64,000 bases of DNA. Source: an uncultured bacterium (GTDB lineage Bacteria > Babelota > Babeliae > Babelales > Babelaceae). The position numbers and the translations under genes were made by a program. Shown one piece after another: positions 8,080-60,520 of the stretch. Numbering within the stretch: the stretch's first letter is position 1; every line of letters starts with the position of its first letter. The DNA is taken from assembly GCA_963819815.1 (NCBI GenBank), contig CAWFXL010000001.1, forward strand, positions 352,001 through 416,000, given 5' to 3'. The notes under the pieces were generated by a model. It saw only the letters and a program-made list of their open reading frames with translations. It searched no databases and was not told the DNA's origin.

Positions 8080-9162
8080 TTAATGAGCGGTAGACGTATA
8101 AGGCTTCTCGCAGCATGGCTTACATGGATTACAAGGTGGTACGCAGGGCTTGCAAATAACTGAGCGAATCTCATCAAGAAGTACCAAATCCGCTTGGAAA
8201 CACTCACGCGGCAAGGGAACAAGATTGAGACATCGTGCAAATTTTTGTCCCTCAGTAAGCACAAAGTAGATAAACTGGGCAAGATTGCACGCAATAAATT
8301 CAGAAGGTTGATTCGCGTAGACGATCAGGTATTCTTTAAAGGTCAGAGGATAGGCGCAAGGGATTTTAGGTTTTGTAACTGATTCGTCACACAATCCTTC
8401 TGCAGCTTTCCGTATGCTCTCAAGACATGGCTCAACAAATTGCGTGCAATCATAGATGCTTTCTATTTCAGCACTTCTTGCACAACATTCTTGAGCTTGA
8501 GCAAATGTCGTATAGCCAATCGTACCGTGAGTCGCCTTAACACGAGCAGCAACGTTGTTTGACGTACATTGATTTTCTCCTTTGCAGTTCCAAGGCCAAC
8601 AAAGAAGGTAAGCAAGAACGGTCGACAATTCACTCGCGGCGCACGGGTAAATGGCTTGTATGTAAGCATCACCTTTATAGCATATGTTATTGTATGGTCT
8701 ACGTAAGAGTGAAGCCCAGGATACACATTTCTTCCTAAAGAAAATATCGATTATGTCCTCTTCAGTAAGACGCAGGGTGAAATTGCGCGGGAACTTACAG
8801 CAGGGATCGTCAGTAGGAAGATTGTATACCACGGAGATTGCGGAGAATACGATTGGAATACTTAAGATGCAATCAGGTTGCCTATCCTGTTCTGAACGGG
8901 TGGCAGCAATATCTGATCCGGCAAAAGAAACTCTATAGGAATAGAGCGCTTCTCTTCCATCCTCAGAACCGAAACAACTCTTGTCAGATTTATAGGTAAA
9001 ACAGGGGCAAGGATAAATTTTGTTATAGCGTGCAATGTTTCTATCAATAAAAGGTTTAAGGTCAAATGAACCCGCCCCTTTAATCACGCTTAAAAACTGC
9101 TCATCACCAGCAGAGATATTTACCGACATACCGAAAATAAAAAATGTATAGAGTAACTTCAT
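8080..9162 (-). CDS. Divergent PstS/DING-like Cys-rich secreted protein (paralog 0)
   Basis: IKGAGS, FAGSD, IPIVFSAISVVYNLP, LRLT, GTIGY, AYPL motifs of the PstS fold; 27 Cys; ICKPCVPPCNPCKPCC tail; start chosen at MKLLY after an AGGAG RBS. Confidence 0.8.
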   Translation of the reverse strand: MKLLYTFFIFGMSVNISAGDEQFLSVIKGAGSFDLKPFIDRNIARYNKIYPCPCFTYKSDKSCFGSEDGREALYSYRVSFAGSDIAATRSEQDRQPDCILSIPIVFSAISVVYNLPTDDPCCKFPRNFTLRLTEEDIIDIFFRKKCVSWASLLRRPYNNICYKGDAYIQAIYPCAASELSTVLAYLLCWPWNCKGENQCTSNNVAARVKATHGTIGYTTFAQAQECCARSAEIESIYDCTQFVEPCLESIRKAAEGLCDESVTKPKIPCAYPLTFKEYLIVYANQPSEFIACNLAQFIYFVLTEGQKFARCLNLVPLPRECFQADLVLLDEIRSVICKPCVPPCNPCKPCCEKPYTSTAH

Positions 9163-9335
9163 CACTTTCTCCTTTATGCAACTTAAAGACTTCCACATTC
9201 TAGCGCATTGAATTCTTAATTTTCAAGAGTTTTGAAAAAATATTTTTTTGAACGGGTAAATTTAGTCATAAGATGATGAAATATCTTCATAGCAGGGCTT
9301 TTTTATGCCTTTTTTTAGGGATATGTAGGTAGACT

Positions 9336-9370
9336 TAAAAAGGACATGCCGAGCACGAAGCTCGGCATGT
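9336..9370 (-). terminator. Family terminator (copy 1)
   Basis: ACATGCCGAGC-5nt-GCTCGGCATGT stem, then CCTTTTT on the minus strand. Confidence 0.85.
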
Positions 9371-9402
9371 ATAAAGAACGAATTACTGAGTGCTAAAGTA
9401 CC

Positions 9403-10644
9403 TTAGTTGCCGCAGGTTGGGCAGGCCACTTCACAAAACTCAGGTGTTCTGCAAGGTATGCAAGGTTCAACGCATGGTTTGCAAATTGCAGGAGCAATGC
9501 TATCAAGCAAGATCTTACTTGCATTTAAGCAATCTTGGGTCATTGGAACGAATCCTCGAACACCAAGCTTTTGACCTTGGGTAAGAAGGAATACAATGAA
9601 CTGGGTAAGATTGCATGCAATCCATTCTATTGGCTGAGTACCAAAGAGATCAAAGTATTCAGCGGTAACGATAGGATATACATGTCCTGGATTTGAATGA
9701 GGAGCAAACTGACATATTAAGTCGTTACATACCTGGTTATTAATGACAGAATCGATCTGAGCGTTCTGTATCGCTTCATCATCAGTTGGTGAAATGAAAT
9801 CATTTTGGTGGAGGTTGTCTGTAGGTGGCATTAATCCACCTTGAAGCAAGAGTGCTGCTGGAACTGTTGGAAGGCTGATGAGATTGGCACCCGTTCCTAC
9901 ATAACCGATTGAACCACCTGTTTTTCGTATTTCTTCGATCATTTCTGCAGAGCTATACACCTTATCTGCGGTAGTAACATTAAGAAAATGTGGTTTTGGA
10001 TCACCAGCATTAACCGCTGTGCAGTTTCCACAGTCATTTAAATACGTTGTGAAAGCTTGGTTAGTACCAGATGCATCACCACGAGCAAATGGGGTTATAC
10101 GATTAGTACTTGAAAAGCTTACGTTACAGTTATAAGGCTTTGCAAGATAGGTTTCCCAAAGTGTGTCTGCATTAGTCGCACCCGTATAGATACGACAAAG
10201 ATCTTCACCTGTTAATCTCAATACACCAGCCGGAGTGAGGCATGTTGCAGGATTGTATGTTGACCCATTACTTTGAGTTACACTGGCTGGCAGGTTATAA
10301 ATAACCGATACTGAAGATAGAATGAAAGGAATTTGCAAGAAGCAATCTGGCAAATTACGCGTTTCAGTTGCAGGTGCTAGAAAGTCTGAAACTGAAGCAT
10401 CGAGCAATCCATTGTATACATCGTAGCGTCCTCGGAACGAATCTGAGAATTCTGCTGTTTGCTTATACACAAACGTTGGGCAGGGGAAAATAGTATTATA
10501 GAGCGAAATTGCAGCATCCATATAGTTTTCTGCAAGCGTTGATCCGCCAATGCTAATCGTGCTTCCGTAACTTGGAGCATATTTTGCTGAAACAGAAACG
10601 CTGGTTAATAATGCTAACGATAAGATAGCTAATTTTTTCATCAT
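9403..10644 (-). CDS. PstS/DING-like Cys-rich secreted protein (paralog 1)
   Basis: Signal peptide; GGSTL, VSD, ARGDASGT, GSIGY, YPIV motifs; 18 Cys, 7 of them in the tail CKPCVEPCIPCRTPEFCEVACPTC. Confidence 0.85.
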   Translation of the reverse strand: MMKKLAILSLALLTSVSVSAKYAPSYGSTISIGGSTLAENYMDAAISLYNTIFPCPTFVYKQTAEFSDSFRGRYDVYNGLLDASVSDFLAPATETRNLPDCFLQIPFILSSVSVIYNLPASVTQSNGSTYNPATCLTPAGVLRLTGEDLCRIYTGATNADTLWETYLAKPYNCNVSFSSTNRITPFARGDASGTNQAFTTYLNDCGNCTAVNAGDPKPHFLNVTTADKVYSSAEMIEEIRKTGGSIGYVGTGANLISLPTVPAALLLQGGLMPPTDNLHQNDFISPTDDEAIQNAQIDSVINNQVCNDLICQFAPHSNPGHVYPIVTAEYFDLFGTQPIEWIACNLTQFIVFLLTQGQKLGVRGFVPMTQDCLNASKILLDSIAPAICKPCVEPCIPCRTPEFCEVACPTCGN

Positions 10645-10766
10645 GAGATAAATCCTTTTTTGTTGTTTGTTTGTTTGTTTATTAAAAATTTATTGCCAAA
10701 ACGGCACGTGCGGGTCCCCCAACCTGCGAAATGAATTGTTATACTGATAGTAACTCTTCGATATTC

Positions 10767-10796
10767 ACTATAACCTAATATTTTTTATAAAATCAA
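10767..10796 (-). promoter_or_regulatory. sigma70-like promoter of paralog 1
   Basis: TTGATT-N18-TATAGT, identical boxes and spacing in four cassettes. Confidence 0.7.
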
Positions 10797-11446
10797 TAAT
10801 TCGTAAAAGAATTTTTGTCATCAAATGTTTTAATCTATATTAATCAGTTTGATATTATAATAAGCGGTGTTACTTAGGTTGCGAGGGTAGATTGTGGTAA
10901 AAGATGATCAAACCAAGATATCTATGAATAGTGAGATAAGGGGAAGGGTCCTTTGATAATAGATGCGTGAAGAATAAGTGATTTTGATACCAGGAAATAG
11001 TTAATAGACTTAGTGAATATAATGATCGGGAATTATTAAGCGTAGGCATGTACAATCTGGATGATCTTTAAGATGGAACCACTAATCCCTAACTGTTTTG
11101 AAATAAAGCCTTAGATGTCTTGGACAAAAAGGCATACCTCATGAACAAAAATATGCCGAGTGGTCTGCATGATAAAAAATTACGGTGGCTGATACGTTTG
11201 AGAAAAGCCAGAATTAAGGATCGAGGGAGGGATAGTATTTGAGACATAGAAGACTGTATCGTATTTTCGTAACTGGGCAATTGATCTCGTGAAGAGGTCT
11301 GTAAATGAAGCTCATTTATCTAGAAATCTAAAGGCCATTCAGCTGAAAAAAGCGGATTGTTATGTTCCACTCTGATCTTTCACTCTATGAAATGCCTCAT
11401 GCCCGGCAAACGATCTGAAGAGATAATATCAATCTTAGAAATGTCC

Positions 11447-11500
11447 TTAGCATGTGCAGGTTGGACAAGTCTGAGGGGCTATCATAAGGTGTGCAGGGAT
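11447..11500 (-). pseudogene. 3'-terminal remnant of another family paralog
   Basis: Encodes PCTPYDSP and (shifted frame) QTCPTCTC*; closely similar to the remnant end at 13983. Confidence 0.6.
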
Positions 11501-11513
11501 ATGTTGGTAGATG

Positions 11514-11547
11514 TAAAAGGACATGCCGAGCATGAGGCTCGGCATGT
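11514..11547 (-). terminator. Family terminator (copy 2)
   Basis: ACATGCCGAGC-5nt-GCTCGGCATGT stem plus T-run. Confidence 0.85.
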
Positions 11548-11576
11548 AAAGAACGAATAATTGAGTACTAAAGTGC

Positions 11577-12825
11577 TTAGTTGCCGCAGGTTGGGCAGGC
11601 CACTTCACAGAACTCAGGTGTTCTGCAAGGTATGCAAGGTTCAACGCATGGTTTGCAAATTGCAGGAGCAATGCTATCAAGCATGATCTTACTTGCATTT
11701 AAGCAATCTTGGGTCATTGGAACGAATCCTCGAACACCAAGCTTTTGACCTTGGGTAAGAAGGAATACAATGAACTGGGTAAGATTGCATGAAATCCATT
11801 CTATTGGCTGAGTACCAAAGAGATCAAAGTATTCAGCGGTAACGATAGGATATACATGTCCTGGATTTGAAAGAGGAGCAAACTGACATATTAAGTCGTT
11901 ACAAACCTGGTTATTAATGACAGAATCGATCTGAGCGTTCTGTATCGCTTCATCATCAGTTGGTGAAATGAAATCATCTTGGTGGAGGTTGGTCTGTAGG
12001 TGGGAGCAATCCACCTTGAAGCAAGAGTGCTGCTGGAACGGTTGGAAGGTTAATGAGATTGGCACCCGTTCCTACATAACCTATTGAACCACCCGTTTTT
12101 CGAACCGCTTCAATCATTTCTGCAGAGCTATACACTAGATCTGAGGGGTTGGTACTAACATTAGGAAAAGTTGGTTTTGGATCACCAGCATTAACCGCTG
12201 TGCAGTTTCCACAGTCATTTAAATACGTTGTGAAAGCTTGGTTAGTACCAGATGCATCACCACGAGCAAATGGGGTTATACGATTAGTACTTGAAAAGCT
12301 TACGTTACAGTTATAAGGCTTTGCAAGATAGGTTTCCCAAAGTGTGTCTGCACTAGTCGCACCCGTATAGATACGACAAAGATCTTCACCTGTTAATCTC
12401 AATACACCAGCCGGAGTGAGGCATGTTGCAGGATTGTATGTTGTCCCATTACTTTGAGTTACACTGGCTGGCAGGTTATAAATAACCGATACTGAAGATA
12501 GAATGAAAGGAATTTGCAAGAAGCAATCTGGCAAATTACGAGTTTCACTTGCAGGTGCTAGAAAGTCTGCAACAGAAGCATCGAGTGATCCATTGTACAC
12601 GTCATAACGTCCTCGGAACGAATCTGAGAATTCTGCTGTTTGCTTATACACAAACGTTGGGCAGGGGAAAATAGTATTATAGAGCGAAATTGCAGCATCC
12701 ATGTAGTTTTCTGCAAGCGTCGAACCACCAACTCTAATGGTACTTCCAAAGGCTGGTCTGAATTGTGCTGAAACAGAAACGCAGGTGAGTAATGCTACCG
12801 ACAAGATAGCTAATTTTTTCATCAT
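11577..12825 (-). pseudogene. PstS/DING-like paralog 2, frameshifted by a 1-nt insertion at about 11991
   Basis: Near-identical to paralog 1; GGTTGGTCTG here versus GGTTGTCTG in paralog 1; length 1249 = 3n+1. Confidence 0.85.
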
Positions 12826-12938
12826 AATAATCCTCTTTTGTTTTTTTGTATGTTTTTTGTATAGTTTATTAAAATGGCACTTGCAGGTCCCCCAACCTTC
12901 GGTATAGCCGTTAAACTGATAGTAACTCTTCATTACTT

Positions 12939-12968
12939 ACTATAATTAATTTTCTATTATGAAATCAA
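12939..12968 (-). promoter_or_regulatory. sigma70-like promoter of paralog 2
   Basis: TTGATT-N18-TATAGT. Confidence 0.7.
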
Positions 12969-13370
12969 TGATTTAAAATGAATAATATTTATAAATATTT
13001 GTATATAATGTGGCTCTTTTTTCTAGACTGTCATATCTGTTAGAAATGGGTGTCATTGTAATCGTTAATAACTCGTGCCAAACACACGTTTTAGTCAAAA
13101 AAATAACATCGTTCATACGGCACATCTGTTCGCTCACTATGAGGGAATGCCCTAAGGCATAGACTTTTATGATCCTTCTCATTTCAGCCGCTATACCTAA
13201 ACTACAGTGCTTACCCTCTGCGCTGGGAAGGCCCCTAAATGTATGTGTGGGGATGAGAAGCACAAGATAGTATCTCGAGATCATCGAGGTGATATCTTCT
13301 AACAACTCTTGCATGTATCTCATTTGCTGATACTATCACATGTGAACTGTAGCGGTTTTTAATAATCAAA

Positions 13371-13569
13371 ATAGTGCCAGAGCAGCCTCGCCTTTGTACT
13401 GAGTGATGTATCGGCGTAGAACCACTCATGATAGAGACTATAATGCTGCGAAAAATATCGAACGAGTTGGGGCATCAACTCTTGGGTTAGGCGATGTAAG
13501 ACCAACTTTGTTGGCTATCGCTGTCTGATCCCAGAATCCCCGGAATGTATTCCTGGACGAGTATGTCAA
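13371..13569 (+). mobile_element. Non-autonomous IS200/IS605-family mini-element (putative left end + tnpB 3' end/omega-RNA region)
   Basis: 199 bp; encodes RTTHDRDYNAAKNI; ends GAATCCCCGGAATGTATTCCTGGACGAGTATGTCAA; equal-length copy at 49120-49318. Confidence 0.8.
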
Positions 13570-13982
13570 TAATAAGCATCTCAGCATCGGGGGGAACTTT
13601 CAAGATCCATTTTCCAAATTCGATACCAAGAAAAACCTCAATGCATCCTGCTAATCAAGATTACCACGTAGGCATCAGACTAGGAGCATCTGTTTTGTAA
13701 GCAACTGTAAGATCCTCTTGCCTTCCAAATGAGCTTTCCCTTTGTGTCGAAGCCTTCGATCTGGCCAGCTTTATATTTGCGGCACTGGCTAACCTTCATA
13801 GTCCATCATCAGAAGGGATTCCCTCTATCTTTTGGAGAGAGTGTGTCACCAGAGACTTGAAGCCATCTTGTAAAAAAGTAATGAAATGCTGCTGATAAAC
13901 TCTTTATAAAGGAGAAAATAATAGTGAACAAATTGCATGACGAGCAAGGGGCCCAACATGAGAGCCTATCAATGAAATGATC

Positions 13983-14390
13983 TTAGCATGCACAGGTGGA
14001 CAAGTCTGCATACGCCATGCAGGGCTATCGCAAGGTGTGCAAGGAGGAATGTAAGCATTGCAAAGTACTCCAGAGATACTATCTAGGAAGATCTTGCTAG
14101 AGCATAAACCTCATTGGATCAATGAAACTAGCCAGAGACACCACCGTTGATTTTGGATAAGACTGAGCAAAATAAAATTGTAAGATGAAAGCGATCCTTT
14201 CGATGGGCTAAGTTCTGCGATAACGACAGGATATATTAATGCCTTAGCAGGGTGATTCTGACAAGACAAGTTTGTAGAGAGAATTGCCTGATAGATTAAG
14301 TTTGTTCAATTTAGATTAACCCAGTTAATCTAAATTCAAAACCCGTGAGGTCATACGTGTCGGTACCATCTTCCACAGTGGCTGGTAAGT
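13983..14390 (-). pseudogene. Degenerate, internally deleted family paralog
   Basis: Fragments LPATVEDGTDTYDLTGFEFRLTG, TNLSCQ..YPVVIAE and SKIFLDSISGVLCNAYIPPCTPCDSP match the family. Confidence 0.75.
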
Positions 14391-14394
14391 AATG

Positions 14395-14586
14395 AGAAAG
14401 GATCTTTTAAGCTCGGTTACCCAGGTAACTTTGACCTTACATCTAGTTTCTGTACGTCAGACCCAAAGTTTTGACCTTCAGATCTCACCTCGCAATGGGA
14501 AACTCTTGCCTACAGCTTACGATTCTGGTTGCTACGAGCCCGCTGGGGACTTGAACCTCTTTGAAATTTTACCAAACCCAGCGCAC
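14395..14586 (-). mobile_element. 5' fragment (domain I) of a group IIC intron
   Basis: Starts GTGCG 5 nt after a terminator stem; GGTTCAAGTCC, GCAAGAGTTTCCCATTGCGAGGTGAGATCTGAAGG and GGTCTGACGTACAGAAAC resemble conserved class C domain I segments; no RT ORF or DV/DVI seen. Confidence 0.75.
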
Positions 14587-14591
14587 AGGAA

Positions 14592-14618
14592 ACATGCCGA
14601 GCACGGGGCTCGGCATGT
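14592..14618 (-). terminator. Family terminator (copy 3), T-tail interrupted by the intron fragment
   Basis: ACATGCCGAGC-5nt-GCTCGGCATGT followed by TTCCT|GTGCGC. Confidence 0.8.
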
Positions 14619-14662
14619 AAAAAGTTACTATCTAGTATACTAGCTGAGGAGAGTACTTCCCC

Positions 14663-15931
14663 TTAGTTGTTGCAGGTTGGGCAAGCCTCAGGGCACGTTG
14701 CAACGGTTGCGCAAGGTATGCATGGTTCAATGCAAGGCTGGCAAATTGCAGACCCGATATCATCAAGGAGAGCCTTACTCGCTGCTATACAGTCTTGCGA
14801 CATTGGGAAGTATCCTGGAACCTGACTTGCAAACTTTTGCCCTTGGGTAAGAAGGAACAAAATAAACTGTTTAACGTTGCATGCAATAAAGTCTGTTGGC
14901 TGTGTACCAAAGACTTCAAAAAGCTCAACAGTAACAATCGGATATGCACCTGGAACGCAGGTTAAGCTCGTGCAGTTTCCACTGCTTACTGCAGCCTGTA
15001 CGTTCGCCGCAGTTGGTGCTAGGAAGTCAGCATTCACAGTTGAGCTGCCGCCTGCTTCGAGTATCAAAGCAACAGGGATGTTAGGATTATTTGATACCGC
15101 AATATCACCTAACCCAGCATAGCCAAGAGTGCCAGGATTAGCTGCTACATAGTTAACCAAGGCTATACCACCTGATACGCGAACTACTAAGCTTGTAAAT
15201 TGGCTATCGGTGAATAATGGCGGCGTTCCAGCTGGAAGTGGATTGTTAGGCGTTATTCCTGGGCAATTTCCACAGTTAGCTAGATAGGTTGTGAATACTT
15301 GCGAAGTACCACTGCTATCTAGTCGAGCAACTGGAATTAATGGATAGTTGTGAGTGTTAACCGGAGCAATACACCCCGTAGGTTGTCCACCTAAGTTATA
15401 GGGCCTTGAAAGAAAATCTTCCCAGAATTCGGTTGTCGGATTTGTATAGATGCTACAAAGATCGCTACCTGTTAATCTCAATCCACCATTTGCAGCCAAA
15501 TCAGCAGCGAGAGCGGCAGTCGTAGTATAAATCTTAGCTACGCCACCCTTACATACCGTAAACATCCCTCCCGCAAAAGTGATATTTGGTAGATGATAAG
15601 GGATAGCAACTGCAGAAACTAGGAATGGAATTTCCAGGAGACAATCTGGCAAAAACTGTGTTTCAGTTGCAGGCGCTGGAGCATCTGACACTGCACCAGT
15701 AAGTGTTCCGTTATAAACACCAGCACGCCCAGCACCTGAGTCTGAGGTTGCATAGGTGAATGTTGGACACGGGTAAATTGAGTTTTAAAGACTAACAACC
15801 GCAGTCATGTAAGGTGCTGCGAGTGAAGATCCACCAAGTTTAATGTTAGCACCAAAACCAGGTGCAAATTTTGCCGAAGCAGAAACGCATGTGAGTAATG
15901 CTATCGACAAGATAGCTAATTTTTTCATCAT
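14663..15931 (-). pseudogene. PstS/DING-like paralog 3 with a single in-frame TAA at 15785-15787
   Basis: MMKKLAILSIALLTCVSASA start at 15931, in frame with the ORF at 15691; SL*NSIYPCP versus SLYNTIFPCP in paralogs; ARLDSSGT and GAYPI intact. Confidence 0.85.
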
Positions 15932-16037
15932 AATAATCCTCTTTTATTTTTGTTTTGTTTATATTTTGCTTACTGAGCAATTGTAGGTTCCCCTGCCTAC
16001 ATGTAGCTGTTATACTGCTAATAACTCTTCACTATTA

Positions 16038-16067
16038 ACTATAAATAATTTTCTATTATAAAATCAA
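16038..16067 (-). promoter_or_regulatory. sigma70-like promoter of paralog 3
   Basis: TTGATT-N18-TATAGT. Confidence 0.7.
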
Positions 16068-16623
16068 GAGATAAAAAAGAATATTTACCGCATGATTTTG
16101 AAAACAAATCTTTCCATTGGCAAGCTTCTTGAAAGCAATAAGCTTTGGAAGCAGTTCCCAATTTCATGATGCAACAAGCTCCCGTTTGGCGCGATCACAT
16201 GCTTATGCTCTACATCGAGTTACACAAAGACACGCCCCCTCCTATTTCCAGGCTACTACGCCGCCTCATAGCCTCTACATGACCAACTTGCTCTCTCCTA
16301 GTCATATAGATCTCCCGAGCATAGCGACCAGAATAATCTCGTCGCTTTACTACTTTTTTATATCGATACGGCCTGGTATATATAGGCATATGGCTGCACA
16401 GCCGTGCTCATGTATAAAAGTGTAATAAAGCAGCAATCAGTTTTTGAAATCTTTTCAGAAAATTATGTGCGAGTAACTAAAAAAGTCCTGTCATCTCTTA
16501 TCATGCAGGCAGGGCGATGAGGATCTTCTTACTACTAAGCGATTGCACTTTCATGAGCAGTATGATAGTTTTCAAGCTACCTAATAAGTAGGTATTAAGG
16601 AACGTTACCAGGGAGATTTCTTC

Positions 16624-17190
16624 ATGAAAAAACTCATGCTTCTTACATCGTTAGCAATTTCAAGTTACTCGTACGGAATTCCAGATAAGATACTAAAGGA
16701 AGTTGCAACTGCTCATTCTCTGAGCGAGCTGAGTCAAGAAGCGCAAGAGGCAATTACTTCCAAAGAGCTTCCCAGGGAAGCTCTCAGTACTGAGCTCAGG
16801 AAAGAAGTAGAGGCTCTCGACTTTTACTGGGAGATACTCCTTGCTATCATTACCCAAAACACGGATGCTATCGCCCATCAAGTAGCCCAAGGTATTGATC
16901 TTAACGCAAAGACCAATTTTAACTATACCTTTCTCACCTTTGCAGTCGATAATAATGTTGTTGAAAGTGTGCGCGAATTGATTAAACAAGGTGCTCAGGT
17001 CTCAATTCCCGATGAGTTCGGGAGAAGCCCACTTCACTATGCAATTATTCGTAGAAACAAATCTATGGTAACACTGCTTCTTGAAGCTGGGGCCGATCCT
17101 AATCTGCCTGATCACAAAGGTAATACACCACTAATGTGCACATCAAACGAAGGCATTATTGCCTTACTACGTCTTTTTGGGGCACACTAG
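16624..17190 (+). CDS. Small secreted ankyrin repeat protein
   Basis: Signal peptide; GRSPLHYA, GADPNLPDHKGNTPL. Confidence 0.9.
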   Translation: MKKLMLLTSLAISSYSYGIPDKILKEVATAHSLSELSQEAQEAITSKELPREALSTELRKEVEALDFYWEILLAIITQNTDAIAHQVAQGIDLNAKTNFNYTFLTFAVDNNVVESVRELIKQGAQVSIPDEFGRSPLHYAIIRRNKSMVTLLLEAGADPNLPDHKGNTPLMCTSNEGIIALLRLFGAH

Positions 17191-17288
17191 AGAGGAAATT
17201 CGGCTACAACAAACTTACTGACTGCACCAGCATAGGAAAGTTGAGCTTTTCAGAGCGTAACAACCTTAAATGATAGAGAAAGGAATCT

Positions 17289-17897
17289 ATGGATCACCAA
17301 CTTATAGCAATACTCAGCATACCCTGTCTTGGATATCTCAGTTATTGCATCGCTTTGTACAGCGAAATATATCGCCTAAAAATGTATGGAAAGCATGTTG
17401 TCACAGAAGAAGAAGACCTTGATCCTATTCTGAGGGCACCGATTACCACCAGATCCTGGTTCAATCTTTCACAAGCAGCAACATGGCTCATACTTGGAGG
17501 ATTACTCCTTGGCGGCTACGCCTACGGAGAATATCTAATCAGGTTTAACCCTATAGAAAAATATCTCGATAGGTTTATCACCCTAAACTGGATTCTTGAG
17601 TATAGTATTGGACTTTTACTCACGCAAACGTTACTGATCCTCGGCTATGCACTAGAATTGTTGCTTATTTTTCGATTTGCAGATCGGAATCGGAGCTCAC
17701 TCATAGGGGAAGTACGTATGTCAAGCGATATAGTCAATCACAAAAGACTCTATCATTTCATTCCATTTAGCATAATTTTGCTAGCTGTGTATGCCTATAA
17801 TCCAAGTGCATTTACTTTGGGATGCGCAATCGCGCCCTTTATCTCTATGTTATCGATGTGGCAACGTATTAGGCGCGCAAGGAAAACAGCTTCTTAA
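17289..17897 (+). CDS. Hypothetical integral membrane protein
   Basis: AAGGA RBS; about 5 hydrophobic segments. Confidence 0.75.
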   Translation: MDHQLIAILSIPCLGYLSYCIALYSEIYRLKMYGKHVVTEEEDLDPILRAPITTRSWFNLSQAATWLILGGLLLGGYAYGEYLIRFNPIEKYLDRFITLNWILEYSIGLLLTQTLLILGYALELLLIFRFADRNRSSLIGEVRMSSDIVNHKRLYHFIPFSIILLAVYAYNPSAFTLGCAIAPFISMLSMWQRIRRARKTAS

Positions 17898-17983
17898 TGT
17901 GCTGCTTTGCCAGAGAGTACCTAGGTGAACTTATCTTCCCAGGAGTTCTTTGTGACGAAGAGCCCTAGCCCTTAGAGAATGTC

Positions 17984-20077
17984 TCAGTGTTTGTGGTACC
18001 CATTTTTTTTCAACTGAGGTGGATGGCAGTCTTTAAGATGTTTTGTACGATCCGCCTCCACACACGTAGCATCACAGTAGCGAGCTTCTTTACAGTTCTG
18101 ACAGATAAGCGAAGCTGATCCCTCATGACAATACCTGCAGACTGTTGGCAGATCCAGCATTTCAAGCTGCCTAATTTTAGGCGTGAGAAAGAGCGGAATA
18201 AGAGAAAGAACTGCCTGGTGAGGAAGTTCAGCACCAAGCTCCTTTAAATAACTAACGACGAGATCATGGCCATATGAATGGGCGCATATGAGAGGTGTTA
18301 TGCCATCTTTATTAGGAGTTGCTGGTTCAGCTCCATGTCTCACAAGAGTTTTAACGACCTTCAGACGACCAGTTTGGCACGCAAGGAGTAAGGGAGTACT
18401 ATTGCGTGGTCCGCACTCATCGACGGGCGCGCCATTCCGTATAAGAAGATCGACAAGCCGACTATGGCCACACCAACTTGCAAAGTGAAGAGCCGTAAAG
18501 CCTTCAATGGTTTTTGCTGAGCGGTCTGCACCTCGTGCTAACAGAAGTTCCACACAATCAAAGGCTCCAGATTGACATGCTACTAAGAGGGCTGTTTGAA
18601 GACGATCATTAACACAGTTGACCTGTGCTCCATGATCAAGCAAAAGCCTCGCAAGCTCTTTCCTATTATTAAGGCAACAGATCATAAGAGCAGTCATTCC
18701 CTTGTATCCTTTTGTATCTACCTGTGCTTGTGCCTCTAAGAGAGCTGTCACTAATTCTTCAGTACCTTGGTTGCATGCAATAGAGAGCGCCGTACCATGC
18801 TCTGCACTTACCGCCTCAAGATCTGCCCCCAGCTCTTTTAACAAGGGAACAAGACGACGTCTCTCTTCAAAGCACGCATAGTGCAGAGCCGTTACCCCAT
18901 GTTTGTTAGCATACGTAACGACACCTCTTTTTTTGGCAGTCAGCCATTCAATTAGTGCTGGGTCTTCGAATGAACATGCGGCCATGAGGGGCGTGATCCC
19001 ATCTGTATCTTCTGACTGTACATCGGCACCGGCAGCTATAAGGGCTCCGATTATGCGCCGCAACCCTTTTTGGCACGCAGCGATAAGGCCAGTTGTGAGG
19101 TCCTTTTGACGATCTTTCTTCAGAGATAGAAGCCGTATAACGAGATGATAATGACCGTTCTCAACAGCATATATGAGGGGGGTTTTTCCTGCGCTATCAG
19201 CCTGTGTTAACTGTGCGCCATGCCTCAGAAACAGATCAACAAGCTCAGCGTCTCCCTCCTCACATGCTTGATGCAGCGCTGTTCTTCCCTTATTATCAGG
19301 AATATCGCACGGCACGCCTTTATCAATAAGAAAGACCACCATGCCATAGCGGCCCCGTTCTTTATGCATCATTGCCTGCAGTAGCAGGTTTCTGTTATTT
19401 TCATCAGATTCAGTAAAAGCAACTCCATGCTCATGAAGACGTTGTGCAATAGAAGTCCTAAAATAGATACAGGCCAAGGACAAGGCATTAGTGCCTCTAT
19501 CAGTTTTAAGGGAAGGATCCGCTCCATGAGTCAGCAAAAAGTCGACCCACCAATACTTACCTCTGATCACAGAAAACGCTAAGGGAGTCATATTTCCCGC
19601 CATCTGCAGATTAACATTACATGCGTGGTTTTTTACCAAGAGTGCAGCAATTTCACGCTTATCAAGCTGACAGGCAATGATGAGTGGACTTGCACCTCCA
19701 TCATCCTGAGCATTAACATTAGCTTCGCATACCAAAAGAAACCTAACAACGCGAATATTACCTGCAGCAACGGCACTATGAAGAGCGGTGCTTCCGTCTG
19801 CAGCTCGTGCATTAACGTCTGCGCCATGTTTTAAGAGTTGGCGAACTTTAGTTGAAAATCCATTTTCAACGGCAATGATGAGGGGAGTGCGTCCGGAAGT
19901 ATCTCGAGCATTAGGGGAAGCTCCTCGATGTACAAGGTCTGCTATAGTGTCTTTGTCATCGGCCATACATGAGTTAAGGAGCAGTCGATCTTCTTTCGTA
20001 AGGTTGATAGATGCCCCATAGAGCATACCTGGTAGTATACTGATACTCAACAAAGCGATGGTGATTATCTTGTTCAT
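17984..20077 (-). CDS. Secreted ankyrin repeat protein with C-terminal MYND zinc finger
   Basis: Many ankyrin units; CRYC..CQNCKEARYCDATCVEADRTKHLKDC. Confidence 0.9.
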   Translation of the reverse strand: MNKIITIALLSISILPGMLYGASINLTKEDRLLLNSCMADDKDTIADLVHRGASPNARDTSGRTPLIIAVENGFSTKVRQLLKHGADVNARAADGSTALHSAVAAGNIRVVRFLLVCEANVNAQDDGGASPLIIACQLDKREIAALLVKNHACNVNLQMAGNMTPLAFSVIRGKYWWVDFLLTHGADPSLKTDRGTNALSLACIYFRTSIAQRLHEHGVAFTESDENNRNLLLQAMMHKERGRYGMVVFLIDKGVPCDIPDNKGRTALHQACEEGDAELVDLFLRHGAQLTQADSAGKTPLIYAVENGHYHLVIRLLSLKKDRQKDLTTGLIAACQKGLRRIIGALIAAGADVQSEDTDGITPLMAACSFEDPALIEWLTAKKRGVVTYANKHGVTALHYACFEERRRLVPLLKELGADLEAVSAEHGTALSIACNQGTEELVTALLEAQAQVDTKGYKGMTALMICCLNNRKELARLLLDHGAQVNCVNDRLQTALLVACQSGAFDCVELLLARGADRSAKTIEGFTALHFASWCGHSRLVDLLIRNGAPVDECGPRNSTPLLLACQTGRLKVVKTLVRHGAEPATPNKDGITPLICAHSYGHDLVVSYLKELGAELPHQAVLSLIPLFLTPKIRQLEMLDLPTVCRYCHEGSASLICQNCKEARYCDATCVEADRTKHLKDCHPPQLKKNGYHKH

Positions 20078-20295
20078 GCTTGCCCTTACAAAGTGTACTT
20101 ATTTTTTCTTAATGATAGTGGCTGCTAGTAGTATAGCCCAGTTTTATTTCATGTCCCATGCTTTTTTTAGCGACCTTCAAGAACTTTTTTACAAAATTGT
20201 GCACCAAAAAGTAACATTCTCATCAAAATTCCAGGCCCGGCGCATTACAATAATTTGATAGCAGGTACTTCATTGGCCACACTTTCAGAAACCTT

Positions 20296-20327
20296 AAAAG
20301 GACATGCCGAGCAGAGGCTCGGCATGT
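20296..20327 (-). terminator. Family terminator (copy 4)
   Basis: ACATGCCGAGC-4nt-GCTCGGCATGT stem plus CCTTTT. Confidence 0.85.
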
Positions 20328-20357
20328 GAAGAGCTAATATCTTAGTAATAAAGAATC

Positions 20358-21599
20358 TTAGCAGGTTGTGCAGGTTGGACAATTCGGAGTGCAAATTGCA
20401 GGGCTGTCGCAAGGTATGCAAGGTTCAATGCATGGCTCGCAAATGACAGCAGAGATGCTATCAAGAGATTCTCTACTTGCACTTAAGCAAGATTGGGTCA
20501 TTGGAACGAATCCTGGGACGCTAATCTTTTGACCGTCCATAAGTAGGAACTGAATAAACTGACTAAGATTGCACGCAAACCACTCTGTTACCTGTGGACC
20601 AAAGAGGTCTATATATTCAGCGATAACAAGAGGATAGGTTACAATAGCACCAGGAGTTACGTTAGGGTCTTCACTTGGCTGACAGATTAAGTTTGTGCAA
20701 TTTGGATTGTTAATTTGGGCAGCCTGGACGTTGGCGAAATTTGGCCCTACGAAGTGGTTGAGGTTGAAACCATCAGTTAAACCTCCTCCAAGCAAGAAAG
20801 CTGCTGGTAGGGGAAGATTTGGAAACGCAGCTAGGTTAGAACCTGTCCCTATATACCCAATTGAGTCACCCGCTGTTGCTACTCCAGAAATCATGTCTGC
20901 TGAGCTGGATGCCCCGGCGTCAAATTCAAAAAGAGTATTTGGGTTGTTTGTCGGGTTTGGATCGTTAGCAATTACCCTTGAACAATTTCCACAATCATGT
21001 AAATAGGTTGTGAATGCTTGGTTGGTACCGTTGGCATCCGTGCGGGCAAACCTAAACATTTGCGTATTGAGAAGCAAAGTACTGTCAGACACGTTATAGG
21101 GTTTTGCAAGATAGGTTTCCCAATATACAGTCACACCACTCGTATAGATCTGGCAAAGATCAGAAGCTGTTAACCTCAAAACACCATCAACTAGATCAGC
21201 TGGGAGGTGATACACAAAACCAGATGCATTTGTCACTGTAGGGGGTATATTGTAAATGATAGATACCGAAGAAAGAATAAAGGGAATTTGCAAGAAACAA
21301 TCGGGCAAATTCGCAGTTTCACTTGAAGGTGCTTTAAAGTCTGACACGGAAGCATCGAGCATGCCGTTGTACACATCCTTGCGCCCCACAAAATCATCTG
21401 TGAATAATGGCCCTTGTTTATATACAAACGTTGGGCAGGGGAAGATATCATTATAGAGAGCAATTACAGCATCCATATACGCGTTTGCGTTTGAAGAACC
21501 ACCAAGTTTAATGGTGCTTCCAAAACTAGGAGTGAATTTTGCAGAAGCAGAAACGCACGTTAATAATGCTACCGACAAGATAGCTAATTTTTTCATCAT
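20358..21599 (-). CDS. PstS/DING-like Cys-rich secreted protein (paralog 5)
   Basis: Same signal peptide and motifs (GGSS, VSD, ARTDANGT, SIGY, YPLV); tail CEPCIEPCIPCDSPAICTPNCPTCTTC. Confidence 0.85.
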   Translation of the reverse strand: MMKKLAILSVALLTCVSASAKFTPSFGSTIKLGGSSNANAYMDAVIALYNDIFPCPTFVYKQGPLFTDDFVGRKDVYNGMLDASVSDFKAPSSETANLPDCFLQIPFILSSVSIIYNIPPTVTNASGFVYHLPADLVDGVLRLTASDLCQIYTSGVTVYWETYLAKPYNVSDSTLLLNTQMFRFARTDANGTNQAFTTYLHDCGNCSRVIANDPNPTNNPNTLFEFDAGASSSADMISGVATAGDSIGYIGTGSNLAAFPNLPLPAAFLLGGGLTDGFNLNHFVGPNFANVQAAQINNPNCTNLICQPSEDPNVTPGAIVTYPLVIAEYIDLFGPQVTEWFACNLSQFIQFLLMDGQKISVPGFVPMTQSCLSASRESLDSISAVICEPCIEPCIPCDSPAICTPNCPTCTTC

Positions 21600-21638
21600 A
21601 ATAATCCTTTTTTATTTTTGTGTTTTTTTACTATTTAC

Positions 21639-22871
21639 TTAGCTTACGCATGTTGGGCACGTTGGCACGCAAACTTTTGGGCTATCGCATGGTACGCAAG
21701 GTTCAATGCACGGCTTGCAAATTCCCGTAGAGATGCTATCAAGTTGTTCCTTGCTTGCACATAGACAGTCTTGAGTCATCGGAACGAATCCTGGAACGCC
21801 TAGCCTTTGCCCTTGGCTAAGCAGGAACAGGGTAAACTGTGAAAGATTGCATGCAATCCCTTTTGTTGACTGTGTACCAAAGAGGTCAATAAATTCAGCG
21901 GTAACAAGAGGATAGGTTACAATAGCACCAGGAGTTACTCTAGGGTCTGCACTTGGCTGACAGAGTAAGTTTGTACAATTCGGGTTACCGATTTGTGCAG
22001 CCTGTACGCTAGCATCATTTGGCCCTACGAAGTCTTCGAGGAAAGTACTAAGACCTGCTCCTTGCAAGAAAGCTGCTGGAAGATTTGGAAACGAAGCTAG
22101 GTTAGCCCCTGTTATTACATAACCAAGTGAGTGAGGCGTTATCGCTACGTCAGAAATCATGTCTGCCGAGCTGGATGCTCCGCCGGCAGATGTAAATAAA
22201 GTATTTGGGTTGTTTGCTGGGTTTGGATCGTTAGCAATTACACCTGAACAGTTTCCACAATCATGTAAATAGGTTGTGAATGCTTGGTTGATACCAGAGG
22301 CATCATTGCGAGCAAACTGAAATAACCGAGTTGACGATGATGACCCGCCCGTGAAACTATCGTTTAAGTTATAGGGTCTTGCAAGATAGGTTTCCCATGT
22401 ATTAAAAACATTCGTATAGATCTCACAAAGATCTGCAGCAGTTAACCTTAAAACACCATCAGTAAGATCAGCTGGGAGGTGATACACAAAACCAGATGCA
22501 TCCGTCACCGTAGCTGGTAAAGTATAGATAATAGACACTGAAGAAAGAATAAAGGGAATTTGCAAGAAACAATCGGGCAAATTCGCAGTTTCACTTGAAG
22601 GTGCTTTAAAGTCTGAAACGGAAGCGTTGAGCAATCCATTGTACACGGCCTGGCGCCCCACTATATCATCTGAGAATAGTGTCCCTTGCTTATACACAAA
22701 CGTTGGGCAGGGGAAAATTGAGTTATAGAGAGCAATAGCAGCATCCATGTATCCTTCTGCGGCCTCAGAACCACCAAGTTTAATGGTGCTTCCAAAACTA
22801 GGCGCAAATTTTGCTGAAGTTGAAACACACGTTAATAACGCTACCGACAAGATAGCTAATTTTTTCATCAT
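21639..22871 (-). CDS. PstS/DING-like Cys-rich secreted protein (paralog 6), likely co-transcribed with paralog 5
   Basis: Same motifs (GGSE, VSD, ARNDASGI, SLGY, YPLV); tail CKPCIEPCVPCDSPKVCVPTCPTC; 39-bp gap to paralog 5 with no terminator. Confidence 0.85.
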   Translation of the reverse strand: MMKKLAILSVALLTCVSTSAKFAPSFGSTIKLGGSEAAEGYMDAAIALYNSIFPCPTFVYKQGTLFSDDIVGRQAVYNGLLNASVSDFKAPSSETANLPDCFLQIPFILSSVSIIYTLPATVTDASGFVYHLPADLTDGVLRLTAADLCEIYTNVFNTWETYLARPYNLNDSFTGGSSSSTRLFQFARNDASGINQAFTTYLHDCGNCSGVIANDPNPANNPNTLFTSAGGASSSADMISDVAITPHSLGYVITGANLASFPNLPAAFLQGAGLSTFLEDFVGPNDASVQAAQIGNPNCTNLLCQPSADPRVTPGAIVTYPLVTAEFIDLFGTQSTKGIACNLSQFTLFLLSQGQRLGVPGFVPMTQDCLCASKEQLDSISTGICKPCIEPCVPCDSPKVCVPTCPTCVS

Positions 22872-22978
22872 AATAATCCTTTTTTGTTTTATTTTGTTCT
22901 TATAGTTTATGTACAGGTAATTGCAGGTCCTCCCACCTACGTTCTAATTGTAATACAGATAATTACTCTTCATTATTT

Positions 22979-23008
22979 ACTATAAACAATTAGCTAGTAT
23001 AAAATCAA
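22979..23008 (-). promoter_or_regulatory. sigma70-like promoter of paralogs 6-5
   Basis: TTGATT-N18-TATAGT. Confidence 0.7.
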
Positions 23009-23474
23009 TAAACTATGTTGAATTTTTTTTAAATAAACACCCTAGTAGAAATTTTCAATAAGCAACTGACTTTGTTGCAATAAGCAGTGATAGAAAGAGT
23101 ACGGAGATAGTGGAAATACGTGGATGAGAGCATGAGCGAAGCACAATCTTGGAAAGCGCATACCTAAGATGGCTTTCACGAATGGCTCGTTCAGGCAAGA
23201 TCATAGAGTCCTATCGGGAGAGCACGAAGAGAAACTCGATAAAGTATCTTCTTAGACGCGTAATATCTGCTCAATGTTTTCTAATAGAATGCCTTTCAAT
23301 AATAACTTGCTAGCTAGTTTGCTCACTTATTCCTTATCTATAATAACTCACGAGGTTCCCTGGTCCAATTAAGGTCTGTTTCGGCACACCTGGTATCATG
23401 GTGTAAGAACATGCCGTCTCTCTTCCTCCAAAGAGATCTTAAAAAGAGTGGTCTCAAGCGATTACACCAAGAGA

Positions 23475-24893
23475 TCATTCGAAGTATGCCTTCCATAGCA
23501 TATTTTTAAAGCGACGACCTGGATCATAGGTATCCTTAAGCTCTCGAAAGCGCTGAGTATTCTTATACACTCTATGAAACTGCTCAGGGGTTGCACATAT
23601 CACATAGGGTAGATAATAGGTTCCATCAAGTGCGAGAATCTTATCGATGACCTCTTGAGTCCAGCGACAGAGTTTTTTCTTGCCAGCTTCCGAGTTACGT
23701 ACGTTAATATAGAGAACAAAAGCAAAGGAGTCCTCGGGAGCATAGGATAACAGGGCTTCAGAGTCCTTAGGTACATACCGTATTGACAGATTAAGGACAT
23801 TCACCTGGTGCTTATTGAGTACTTCAGTTAAAGCCGCAAGAGCTTCTTGATAGCGTTCCACGGGAACAAAGTACTCTTGTAACGTCATAGTTGTTGGGTA
23901 ATGGAGCGACATTGCTAATTGCTTAATGCTATAACTCATTTCATAATTCCGTAATACAACTTCCTTCTTAACGTGAGAAAACTTGCTAACCAAGGAGCGC
24001 ACCTTATGCAAAAAGGGTAACCGTCTAATCAGAACCTCAAGGGTTCTTTTTGGTGCATAATTGATCGGATCACTTTGTAATCGTGCTTGTATGGTAAGAG
24101 GATGAGTGCTCTTCCGCCAGGTAATACTTACAGCTTCGTTAAAGCTCATAGGAAATATATCAGCATTCTGAAATACCACTGTCGTATCCTTCTTAAGCTG
24201 TGAAAACACCCCTGGATACTGTACTGGATCAACTGGGCTCACCAATCTTTCAAGCCGTACGTTATCGGTCAAGGATAGGGTAGCGGTGACGATTACTCCC
24301 ATTAATCCATATCCACCAACCGCAGCAAAGAAAAGGTCGGAATTTTCAGAGCGGCTTGCTTGAACCATACTGCCATCTGCTAGGAGAAGGGTGATCGATT
24401 CGACCGTACTCAATAACGATCCATAGTGCATATCGCGTGCATGAACATTTACACTTAAGCTGCCGCCCACAGAAAAGTCATCAAATGATTGCATGACTTT
24501 CACCGAAAGATCGTATGGATCTAAATATTCCAAAATTGAGCGCCATGTTGCCCCAGCTTCAACGGTTACCAGTTTTCTCCCTACGTCAAGATCGATTATG
24601 CGTGACAGAGCTGACATGTCGAGTACTATTGCCCCAGGATATGCTGTTTGACCACCTTGGGACCAACGAGCGCCTGCTATAGATAGAGTTTTCTTAGTTC
24701 CTGTGACCAGCTTTCTCAATTCCTCAATAGTAGTTGGTCGCTCAATACTCGCAACTTCAATTGCAGTAAGATCAGATCGATCAATGAACCTGATAGACTT
24801 ATTTCTCAGGTATAGATAACCAGCAGCTATCAGACAACAAAGTCCGACGATGAGCACGGCAAAAAATCTTTTAGTGTGAGAAAGGGTAACCAT
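23475..24893 (-). CDS. FAD-binding oxidoreductase (FAD_binding_4 / aldonolactone oxidase-like) with N-terminal TM segment
   Basis: AGARWSQGGQ, VEAGATW, SVGGSLSVNVH, GGYGLMGVI, YDP..RF.N motifs. Confidence 0.85.
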   Translation of the reverse strand: MVTLSHTKRFFAVLIVGLCCLIAAGYLYLRNKSIRFIDRSDLTAIEVASIERPTTIEELRKLVTGTKKTLSIAGARWSQGGQTAYPGAIVLDMSALSRIIDLDVGRKLVTVEAGATWRSILEYLDPYDLSVKVMQSFDDFSVGGSLSVNVHARDMHYGSLLSTVESITLLLADGSMVQASRSENSDLFFAAVGGYGLMGVIVTATLSLTDNVRLERLVSPVDPVQYPGVFSQLKKDTTVVFQNADIFPMSFNEAVSITWRKSTHPLTIQARLQSDPINYAPKRTLEVLIRRLPFLHKVRSLVSKFSHVKKEVVLRNYEMSYSIKQLAMSLHYPTTMTLQEYFVPVERYQEALAALTEVLNKHQVNVLNLSIRYVPKDSEALLSYAPEDSFAFVLYINVRNSEAGKKKLCRWTQEVIDKILALDGTYYLPYVICATPEQFHRVYKNTQRFRELKDTYDPGRRFKNMLWKAYFE

Positions 24894-34675: not shown

Positions 34676-35052
34676 CTCTAGTATCCTTTCTAAGGTTGAT
34701 TACGATGAAGACCTTTTTTTGAATGTTGTTTTCAAGGCTAGAGGATTTTTCAAACGTGTCAATGAGAGTCTCTTAGTGCACGATAGACCTACAAGATTGT
34801 AAAGAGGCAAAATGCCCTACGAGTGACCATATTGAGCAAGAGACTCCTCTCAATGCTTGCAGACCTAGTAATCTCATTGAATCGTAAAAAATATACGAAT
34901 TCATAATGGAGACTCATCGATCTCTCTTTGCGATTCAATGAGATGTAATAACCGCCTCCAATTTTACATATCGTACCTGATATGTTAGAATCACTCTATA
35001 GGAGGCTTGCTTCTGTTTGATCAAAGATGCAACCACTCATAAGAGGAAATCA

Positions 35053-60295: not shown

Positions 60296-60520
60296 AATAC
60301 GCTCCTCAATCATGGGGTAATGCAAGATAAGTATACTATAGGAGGGGTATAATTTCAATAAAAATCGCGCCAATGTATTGAATTTGCATACTTTCGTGTT
60401 ATTTTTGATTGTCTCTAAGATTCTTTTTTTTTGATAACTGTGGCCATTCTATTTTGCACAAACGCATCGAAATAAGCCAGGTGCAAAAAATTATTTATGA
60501 AAATTTGACGGCTGATAGTA

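Follow-up and report, generated by a model that had tools for sequence, protein, structure and literature searches.

A tandem array of Cys-rich PstS-like genes

We analyzed a 64,000-nucleotide stretch of DNA from an uncultured intracellular bacterium of the Dependentiae, hereafter the window, which corresponds to G000:C1:352001-416000 in a genome of 1.64 Mb (G000; two contigs, 88% complete). On the minus strand, between 8080 and 22871, the window carries an array of genes for Cys-rich proteins related to the phosphate-binding protein PstS. The array comprises four intact paralogs, two broken full-length copies, one clear remnant, and one doubtful remnant. Array features are given in window numbering, whereas coordinates that carry the prefix G000:C1 follow the contig.

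8080..9198, minus strand: divergent paralog with the highest Cys load; 372-residue open reading frame (ORF), with a likelier start at M13 (9162) that gives 360 residues
9403..10644, minus strand: intact paralog of 413 residues with 18 Cys; signal peptide, modeled PstS fold, near-complete ligand set, and 7-Cys tail
9406..9483, minus strand: Cys/Pro-rich tail of the 9403 copy (residues 388-413)
11577..12933, minus strand: frameshifted copy in two overlapping ORFs (11974-12933 and 11577-12065); recent duplicate of the 9403 copy
13994..14275, minus strand: remnant with one TGA, covering the C-terminal third of another copy; matches residues 307-410 (E 5e-7)
14663..15931, minus strand: full-length copy whose LYN motif has one in-frame TAA in place of Tyr (read-through translation)
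20358..21599, minus strand: intact PstS-like paralog of 413 residues with 18 Cys, 39 nucleotides downstream of the 21639 copy
21639..22871, minus strand: intact PstS-like paralog of 410 residues with 18 Cys

When the 9403 protein was used as the query, nine matches were found in the genome, all within the window. A preliminary description of this DNA had counted at least eight paralogs, six of them full-length. The four intact genes, the two broken copies, and the remnant near 13983 (13994-14275) agree with that count, except that the 11577 copy is frameshifted and the 14663 copy carries an in-frame TAA. A further remnant proposed at 11447 is doubtful, as it consists only of the eight residues QTCPTCTC, out of frame in the 3′ flank. 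The frameshifted copy shares 89-99% nucleotide identity with the 9403 copy, and its two pieces show 91 and 96% amino acid identity and ratios of nonsynonymous to synonymous substitution (dN/dS) of 0.33 and 0.51. The frameshift itself is visible as a shift in repeat spacing among 2181, 2175, and 2174 nucleotides. The remnant at 13994-14275 overlaps a copy of a 116-nucleotide repeat (family D5) at 14025-14140 (61%).

Modeled fold and family identity

The paralogs matched the Pfam family PBP_like_2 (PF12849) with E values from 2.6e-11 (8080 copy) to 6e-5. Compared with the gathering score of 27 bits, the 8080 copy (44.2 bits), the 11974 piece (41.5), and the 9403 copy (39.0) scored above, and the 21639 copy (23.4), the 20358 copy (23.3), and the 14663 ORF (21.1) scored just below. 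The NCBIfam equivalog for PstS, TIGR00975, has a cut-off of 205 bits, which was not reached by any of the five proteins scanned (85.8, 54.3, 49.1, 30.6, and 27.4 bits). Among PDB sequences, the family profile matched Mycobacterium tuberculosis PstS-1 best (E 6.1e-13), compared with 3.4e-4 for a DING protein (2q9t).

We modeled the 9403 copy (predicted local distance difference test (pLDDT) 86.9, predicted template modeling score (pTM) 0.84, with low confidence for residues 388-413) and the 8080 copy (pLDDT 85.0, pTM 0.82) with AlphaFold2 (AF2). The top Foldseek matches of both models were all PstS structures, with template modeling scores (TMt) up to 0.85 and E values down to 2.7e-21. The 9403 model reached a TMt of 0.82 to both M. 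tuberculosis PstS-1 (E 2.7e-21) and E. coli PstS, versus 0.62 to DING; the 8080 model reached 0.73-0.79 to PstS structures, with a best value of 0.83, and about 0.57 to DING, compared with 0.76 to PstS. Both modeled paralogs are confidently predicted to take the two-lobed class II binding-protein fold of PstS. Because PstS structures rank first and the DING scores are lower, we assign this fold to PstS and not to DING.

The likeness to PstS noted in the preliminary description was therefore borne out by the Pfam, NCBIfam, PDB-sequence, and fold searches. Its DING-like label was not supported, since sequence profile (E 3.4e-4 versus 6e-13) and fold (TMt 0.62 versus 0.82) are both closer to PstS; the mature N-termini read KYAPSYGSTISIGGST. 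Of the analyses it had proposed, profile search and structure prediction gave PBP_like_2 matches and a PstS fold for the monomers. A homodimer prediction for the 9403 paralog (residues 21-413 in two copies, with alignment A4) reached a score of 0.00, the mark being 0.42, and counts neither way.

We placed the family in an unrooted tree of 44 rows, in which supports are from the Shimodaira-Hasegawa-like approximate likelihood ratio test (SH-aLRT) and from which three rows shorter than 300 residues were omitted. Fifteen family rows formed one clade (SH-aLRT 99), with the 8080 copy and P0018 as a pair sister to the rest (P0005-P0019 label family relatives from the sequence-search rows). A branch with support 99 separated seventeen Cys-poor PstS rows from all groups that have a Cys-rich extension; as the tree is unrooted, a single origin of these extensions is not thereby shown. 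Clustering with canonical PstS had been named in the preliminary description as an outcome that would speak against its proposal, and the family instead stands as a separate clade.

A PstS-like family with no Pst importer in the genomes searched

Our comparison set contained 261 Dependentiae genomes (all of the order, which in this set is all of the phylum) and 14 control genomes. PstC scored over its cut-off in none of the Dependentiae genomes (0 of 261) but in 12 of the 14 controls, and it had no match in G000. In the same genome, which is 88% complete, the best PstB-like ATPase reached 166.5 bits against the PstB cut-off of 343.2 bits, and no PHO4 (Pit-type) carrier was found. Four small BPD_transp_1 permeases lie beside other ATP-binding cassette (ABC) ATPases, far from the PstS-like genes. 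Because there is no PstC over cut-off in the 261 genomes and no PstB over cut-off in the family's own genome, we conclude that the family does not serve PstCAB. The absence of pstCAB from the window, which had been noted earlier, thus holds and extends to the genome and to all 261 genomes compared, and the transporter partnership that would have contradicted the original proposal was not found.

Variable erosion of the phosphate-ligand site

The ligand residues of E. coli PstS are T10, F11, S38, D56, R135, S139, G140, and T141 (PMC6549937). We mapped these positions onto the family by motif alignment with E. coli PstS, not by structural superposition. The ligand set is complete in P0005, P0007, and P0008, and P0006 has one change (S35 to Ala). 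The 9403 copy keeps every ligand position; its GSG motif reads DSF, with only the flanking Gly residues changed. The 20358 copy (T36 to Ser, S69 to Asp, and S192 to Asn) and the 21639 copy (T36 to Glu, S69 to Asp, and T194 to Ile) each differ at two or three positions. In the 8080 copy, R188 is Pro, D190 is Ala, G193 is Glu, and T194 is Leu, so that the ligand Arg and the SGT loop are gone, as they are in its orthologue P0018; the SGT loop is likewise gone in P0016, P0017, and P0019. Across the family, substitutions at R188, G193, and T194 occur in 2 to 6 rows, out of the 14-17 in which the position is occupied. The most canonical ligand motifs of the window are those of the 14663 pseudogene copy. 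As read from the alignment, the loss of ligand residues in several members fits a co-option of the PstS fold, which the preliminary description had put forward.

Export signal, cysteines, and tail

The signal peptides of the paralogs read MMKKLAILS[LV]ALLT[SC]VS.SA/K and end in [VAT]SA/K, where the slash marks the cleavage site. Two copies have a Cys ahead of this site, which is Ser in the 9403 copy and absent from the orthologues. Because this Cys is not conserved, we find no lipobox, in agreement with the Sec-type signal described previously.

The intact copies contain 18, 18, 18, and 28 Cys, the last figure being for the whole 8080 ORF and falling to 27 if translation starts at M13; the earlier counts of 18 for the 9403 copy and 27 for the 8080 copy are both recovered, the latter with the M13 start. 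Genome ORFs of at least 250 residues (n = 790) have a median Cys content of 1.25% and a 99th percentile of 4.36%, and with 4.4% in three copies and 7.5% in the 8080 copy the paralogs lie at or above that percentile. The 17 family rows carry 8-28 Cys, compared with 0-5 in 20 ordinary PstS relatives from the representative search; 16 of the 17 have 14-28, the exception being P0012, which has lost the tail and has 8.

The tail follows the pattern C-x2-C-x3-C-x2-C-x5-C-x3-C-x2-C, with 7 Cys. In the alignment of 17 family sequences, I387, P390, and C391 do not vary, and conservation is at least 90% for C395, P397, C398, and C404, which places the first half of the tail among the best conserved positions of the family. 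The tail of the 8080 copy reads CKPCVPPCNPCKPCC. In the AF2 models, pLDDT is below 50 over most of the 9403 tail, and the 8080 tail is also of low confidence. Three tails and the 162-residue Cys/Pro-rich protein described below, when searched against Pfam, matched no family, the sole listing among them being a chance PqqA match (E 0.16), and a feature search of the ESM Atlas with residues 376-413 returned clusters at 0.82-0.86, under the meaningful level.

In the domain itself, C344 and C372 never vary. The 9403 copy, P0008, and the 14663 copy represent three lineages in which two variable loops, the same two each time, have both acquired one Cys. Losses also come in pairs, as P0006 is without both C205 and C311 and P0012 without both C101 and C388. 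Such paired gains and losses are the pattern that disulfide partners would be expected to show. The candidate pairs are 205-311, 208-306, 344-372, and 101-388, together with those of the loops. Because ligand residues are variably eroded, phosphate binding is not the unifying trait of the family; judging from the alignment, it is the cysteines that hold it together.

Signal peptides across the genome were assigned by a crude rule that flags 571 of 1291 genes as signal-like. In eleven of the flagged genes, the final 30 residues contain 4 or more Cys: the four intact paralogs, two proteins of a second PstS-like family (see below), and five others whose C-terminal Cys pattern is, by eye, zinc-finger-like (MYND/RING-type). 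As the only non-zinc-finger tails among signal-like genes are on PstS-like proteins, the Cys tail is tied to the PstS fold in this genome. For the same reason, we rejected the tail as a general C-terminal sorting tag or anchor.

The genome has further Cys-rich ORFs with export signals. One at G000:C1:68565-69053 encodes 162 residues, is Cys/Pro-rich, and has 20 Cys, including CCPRLRCCRPRPACCPPIAPPCEPAPC; it matches no Pfam family. Four signal-peptide ORFs of 493-650 residues with 18-27 Cys, also without a Pfam family, lie at G000:C1:141088-143031, 153113-154594, 1599015-1600925, and 1600971-1602923. Three of these four have an aromatic final residue, as in outer-membrane barrels.

Redox context

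No match to the DSBA, Thioredoxin_4, or DsbB families was found in G000. The genome encodes a VKOR homologue (87.6 bits, CLIC motif) and CxxC proteins of the thioredoxin fold, of which at least six have an N terminus resembling a signal peptide. Five of these six are encoded in tandem. The tandem set, at G000:C1:897302-902222, consists of small genes with the motifs CAPC, CGAC, CPPC, CGPC, and CTAC. Two fusions of a thioredoxin-reductase-like domain with thioredoxin (483 and 504 residues), at G000:C1:1327465-1328913 and 244414-245925, have hydrophobic signal-like N-termini, which is odd for NADPH-dependent enzymes of this kind. The cultured Dependentiae member Chromulinavorax destructans is described as a diderm with a 350-400 nm extracellular particle and dark periplasmic material, with signal peptides on 44% of its coding sequences (CDS) and many proposed effectors (PMC6561590). 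The crude signal rule flags the same share of genes in G000.

Distribution and evolution of the family

A word-indexed search of 5.8 billion clusters returned 13 proteins, four of them from G000. An exhaustive search of 1.84 billion representatives returned 34 at E ≤1e-3 and 10 at E ≤1e-10, with a gap between 6e-17 and 1e-9. In total, the family amounts to about 20 sequences among billions, and each of ten clusters of relatives that we looked up contains between one and three members. No RNA run is listed for this DNA; among DNA runs, one from a soil metagenome contains 6% of the words sampled. Scans of metagenome contigs with alignment A4 and with P0016 found no relative, and a scan of genome contigs with A4 found only OY968766.1.

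At E ≤1e-10, the family profile matched 6 of the 261 Dependentiae genomes, strongly only G000 and G006, which belong to the same genus; a PBP_like_2 protein of any kind occurs in 7 of the 261. The preliminary description had asked how tail and pstCAB are distributed across the phylum: linkage to pstCAB is absent, with PstC over cut-off in 0 of 261, and the family itself is strong in only 2 of 261. Full-text literature searches on Dependentiae with Cys-rich proteins or PstS and on PstS with a Cys-rich C terminus, supplements aside, returned nothing on an architecture of PstS plus Cys tail, and one on disulfides and the outer membrane of Babeliales had no Babeliales paper among the ten matches listed. 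Together with the lack of a Pfam family for the tails, this agrees with the earlier statement that no described family of this kind was known to its author.

G006 (OY968766.1) has a tandem set on a single strand, with one copy frameshifted, one intact, and one of the 8080 type (P0018) with a long Cys- and Lys-rich tail. The gene order agrees with that of the window, the 8080-type copy coming last in both. In the tree, the 9403, 20358, and 21639 copies group with P0009, apart from P0005-P0008, and the 14663 copy is sister to the other main-type copies. As the window copies group together and apart from P0005-P0008, copies have multiplied or been homogenized within lineages. The family is one whose copies are gained and lost quickly.

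Between intact paralogs, dN/dS is 0.29-0.37, and no region exceeds 1. The variable loops (residues 120-185 and 186-322) had the highest proportion of nonsynonymous differences (pN) in three of four main-type paralog comparisons. In the four comparisons, the proportion of synonymous differences (pS) was 0.27-0.34 over signal-peptide codons 1-22 (e.g. 10579-10644) and 0.24-0.70 over the remaining gene regions, with 18 of 20 region values at 0.40 or more. The low pS at the 5′ ends hints at gene conversion.

A second PstS-like pair lies at G000:C1:1522878-1525725 (locus L041, 2879-5726). Its proteins are predicted to be exported and match PBP_like_2 with E ~9e-15; hhalign relates them to the window family with a probability of 98.8% at 25% identity. 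They keep the full ligand motifs and carry different tails with many more Cys, one of which ends CKDKCKDKCR (CPDRDRCKDKCKDKCR). Relatives of this pair in G001, G007, G034, and G128 likewise have Cys-rich tails, and two metagenomic relatives have a Cys/Lys-rich extension at the N terminus instead.

Transcription units and genomic neighborhood

Two elements recur around the paralogs.

9344..9370, minus strand: terminator-like hairpin with an 11-bp stem, 3′ of the 9403 copy; a twin at 11521-11547 follows the frameshifted copy
10733..10812, minus strand: upstream element with promoter-like TTGATT-18-TATAGT (repeat family D9); recurs at 12905-12984, 16004-16083, and 22945-23024

The upstream element precedes four copies; its recurrence is the sole informative part, since the overall count of promoter-like sites is not above that in shuffles. 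Because four copies share this element and two share the terminator-like hairpin, we conclude that whole transcription units were duplicated. The 20358 and 21639 copies are probably co-transcribed, as the gap between them is just 39 nucleotides.

The array is interrupted by ankyrin genes at 16624-20077, and its neighborhood is rich in ankyrin/zf-MYND, WD40, and Sel1 genes. Many of the ankyrin-repeat proteins have signal-like N-termini (window 17984-20077, 29703-31952, and others), and several carry a zf-MYND finger. A gene for a membrane-anchored FAD_binding_4 plus ALO-type oxidase (23475-24893) adjoins the array, with no link to the family seen, and a FAD-dependent oxidoreductase (DAO) at 35017-36214 is split into two overlapping ORFs and is probably frameshifted. 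An AbiEii-type nucleotidyltransferase toxin gene (58776-60373) and a Fic/DOC gene (60844-62378) each have a small upstream partner ORF and probably form toxin-antitoxin pairs with them. The whole window looks like an accessory, host-interaction island.

Discussion

We propose, with a rough probability of 0.38, that these genes encode exported, disulfide-stabilized proteins of the PstS fold that have no role in transport and whose thiol-rich tail tethers or cross-links them in the envelope or on the cell surface. They would belong to a lineage-restricted, tandemly duplicating family, predicted to be exported by Sec, that no longer works with a phosphate ABC importer. This proposal draws on sequence patterns, structural models, and analogy. 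The proteins would fold in an oxidizing cell envelope in which VKOR and several exported thioredoxins supply oxidation, and the PstS domain would be stapled by intramolecular disulfides. The Cys/Pro tail, without a predicted fold of its own, would be a thiol-based tether through which the protein is cross-linked with itself, with its paralogs, or with further proteins of the envelope. A PstS head held in this way in the periplasm or at the surface would form an accessory binding or adhesive layer rather than a transport receptor. To judge from their ligand residues, heads of the 9403 type and of the second family have probably kept the binding of phosphate or of some phosphorylated ligand, and those of the 8080 type have probably not. 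We suggest the tail as tether or cross-linker because of its conservation, its lack of a predicted fold, and the analogy with Cys/Pro-rich cross-linking proteins and the chlamydial outer membrane complex.

Several observations weigh against this proposal. The parity of mature Cys is mixed (17, 17, 18, and 27 in the window and 14-20 in the orthologues), so that neither complete pairing nor one free thiol is general. Exported proteins had a median Cys content of 1.24% compared with 1.15% for the others (p = 0.054 under the crude signal rule); they are not clearly richer in Cys, and a generally Cys-cross-linked envelope is therefore not shown. The family proper is found in only 2 of 261 genomes and any PstS-type protein in only 7, which argues against a core envelope component of the phylum. 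Finally, the tail spacings C-x2-C-x3-C-x2-C and twice C-x3-C-x2-C also suit metal binding.

These spacings, which we take to resemble those of metal-binding sites, lead to the possible, if on balance unlikely, explanation that the family consists of soluble periplasmic or secreted phosphate- or oxyanion-binding proteins for scavenging, storage, or sensing, whose tail is an intramolecular disulfide knot or a Zn, Cu, or Fe-S site. For the tail taken by itself, such a knot or metal site is nearly as likely as a tether. The full ligand sets of P0005, P0007, P0008, and the second family, and the nearly full set of the 9403 copy, are in agreement with a binding role, and the joint absence of C101 and C388 from P0012 hints at pairing between the domain and the first Cys of the tail. 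Such proteins would however have no known partner, given that PstC, a PstB over cut-off, and a PHO4 carrier are all missing, and the 8080/P0018 clade, P0016, P0017, and P0019 have lost ligand residues and kept the tail. Sec exports unfolded chains, which argues against a pre-assembled Fe-S cluster, and the tail was not folded with confidence by AF2, which however worked from a shallow alignment.

The genomic setting is compatible with a host-directed secreted role, in which effectors or adhesins that pass the inner membrane by Sec, and leave the cell by type II secretion or in vesicles, would bind host phospho-ligands or surfaces and the variable loops would reflect host interaction or antigenic pressure. 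Consistent with this are the location in an island of ankyrin/zf-MYND, WD40, and Sel1 genes, the gain and loss of copies with pseudogenes in two species, the clustering of paralogs by lineage, and the high pN of the two loops in three of four main-type comparisons; C. destructans, with its signal peptides on 44% of CDS, has many proposed effectors (PMC6561590). We nevertheless consider this role unlikely, since the 10-12 conserved domain Cys and the paired Cys gains fit an oxidizing compartment rather than the host cytosol, and dN/dS exceeds 1 in no region. If a Pst system had been lost and these genes were its functionless, decaying remains, this would explain why two of six full-length copies are broken, why at least one remnant exists, and why the transporter is absent. 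Such decay is very unlikely in view of the dN/dS of 0.29-0.37 between intact paralogs, the strict conservation of tail and domain Cys across at least four clades, a copy number that grew instead of shrinking, and the retention of both paralog types in the second species, G006.

The envelope-tether proposal can be carried further by analogy. PstS-fold proteins might be disulfide-cross-linked building blocks in the coat of an extracellular infectious particle of Dependentiae, with the tail as cross-linker and a redox switch between a rigid infectious and a replicative state; we regard this extension as quite unlikely. Overall, the interpretation offered in the preliminary description keeps its non-PstCAB, non-canonical proteins with a co-opted fold, and loses the DING-like identity; strong matches in only 2 of 261 genomes argue against a core envelope component.

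Substrate-binding proteins are usually seen solely in their role beside transporters or sensors. In this case, the PstS fold persists, multiplies, and diversifies in a phylum without a PstC over cut-off in 261 genomes, and in G000 the Cys-rich tail is found on PstS-like proteins only, where two distantly related families each have a tail of their own kind. Should the tail act as a tether or cross-linker, it would represent a new mode of fixing a binding protein in the bacterial envelope and offer a view onto the almost unknown surface biology of Dependentiae; should it bind metal, the binding-protein superfamily would gain a new accessory module. In both cases, the family offers a small and well defined target.

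Comparison with known systems

The closest known proteins are E. coli PstS (1IXH) and M. tuberculosis PstS-1 (1PC3/7DM1), which share the two-lobed fold with the family (TMt 0.82 for both). Both PstS and the window family are exported, and the GGST, GSG, SD, and R-D-SGT motifs stand at ligand positions in part of the family. Unlike PstS, the window family has no PstC over cut-off in 261 genomes and scores 27-86 bits against the 205 bits of TIGR00975; it is also Cys-rich, carries a Cys/Pro tail, has lost ligand residues in several members, and occurs in tandem arrays with pseudogenes.

DING proteins (PfluDING 2Q9T and HPBP 2V3Q) are members of the PstS superfamily that are reported to be secreted, to have disulfides, and often to have no linked transporter, and that bear an N-terminal DINGGG motif. 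We know of no DING protein with a Cys-rich tail, and their profile and fold match to the window family is weaker than that of PstS.

OmcA and OmcB come from the chlamydiae, obligate intracellular bacteria that have an infectious form outside the host; the two proteins are exported, rich in Cys, and belong to an envelope cross-linked by disulfides (PMC6752827). Their likeness to the window family is a functional analogy only: there is no relation in sequence or fold, the window family is patchy in its phylum, and cross-linking of its members is a proposal. A Pfam scan of the paralogs at E ≤1 gave PBP_like_2 and weak chance matches only, with no chlamydial family among them.

In Gram-positive and mycobacterial PstS, an appended anchor with an N-terminal lipobox holds the head at the envelope, where it feeds PstCAB. 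The window family resembles these lipid-anchored proteins in joining a PstS head to an appendage, which in its case is a C-terminal Cys/Pro tail on a protein that has no transporter to feed.

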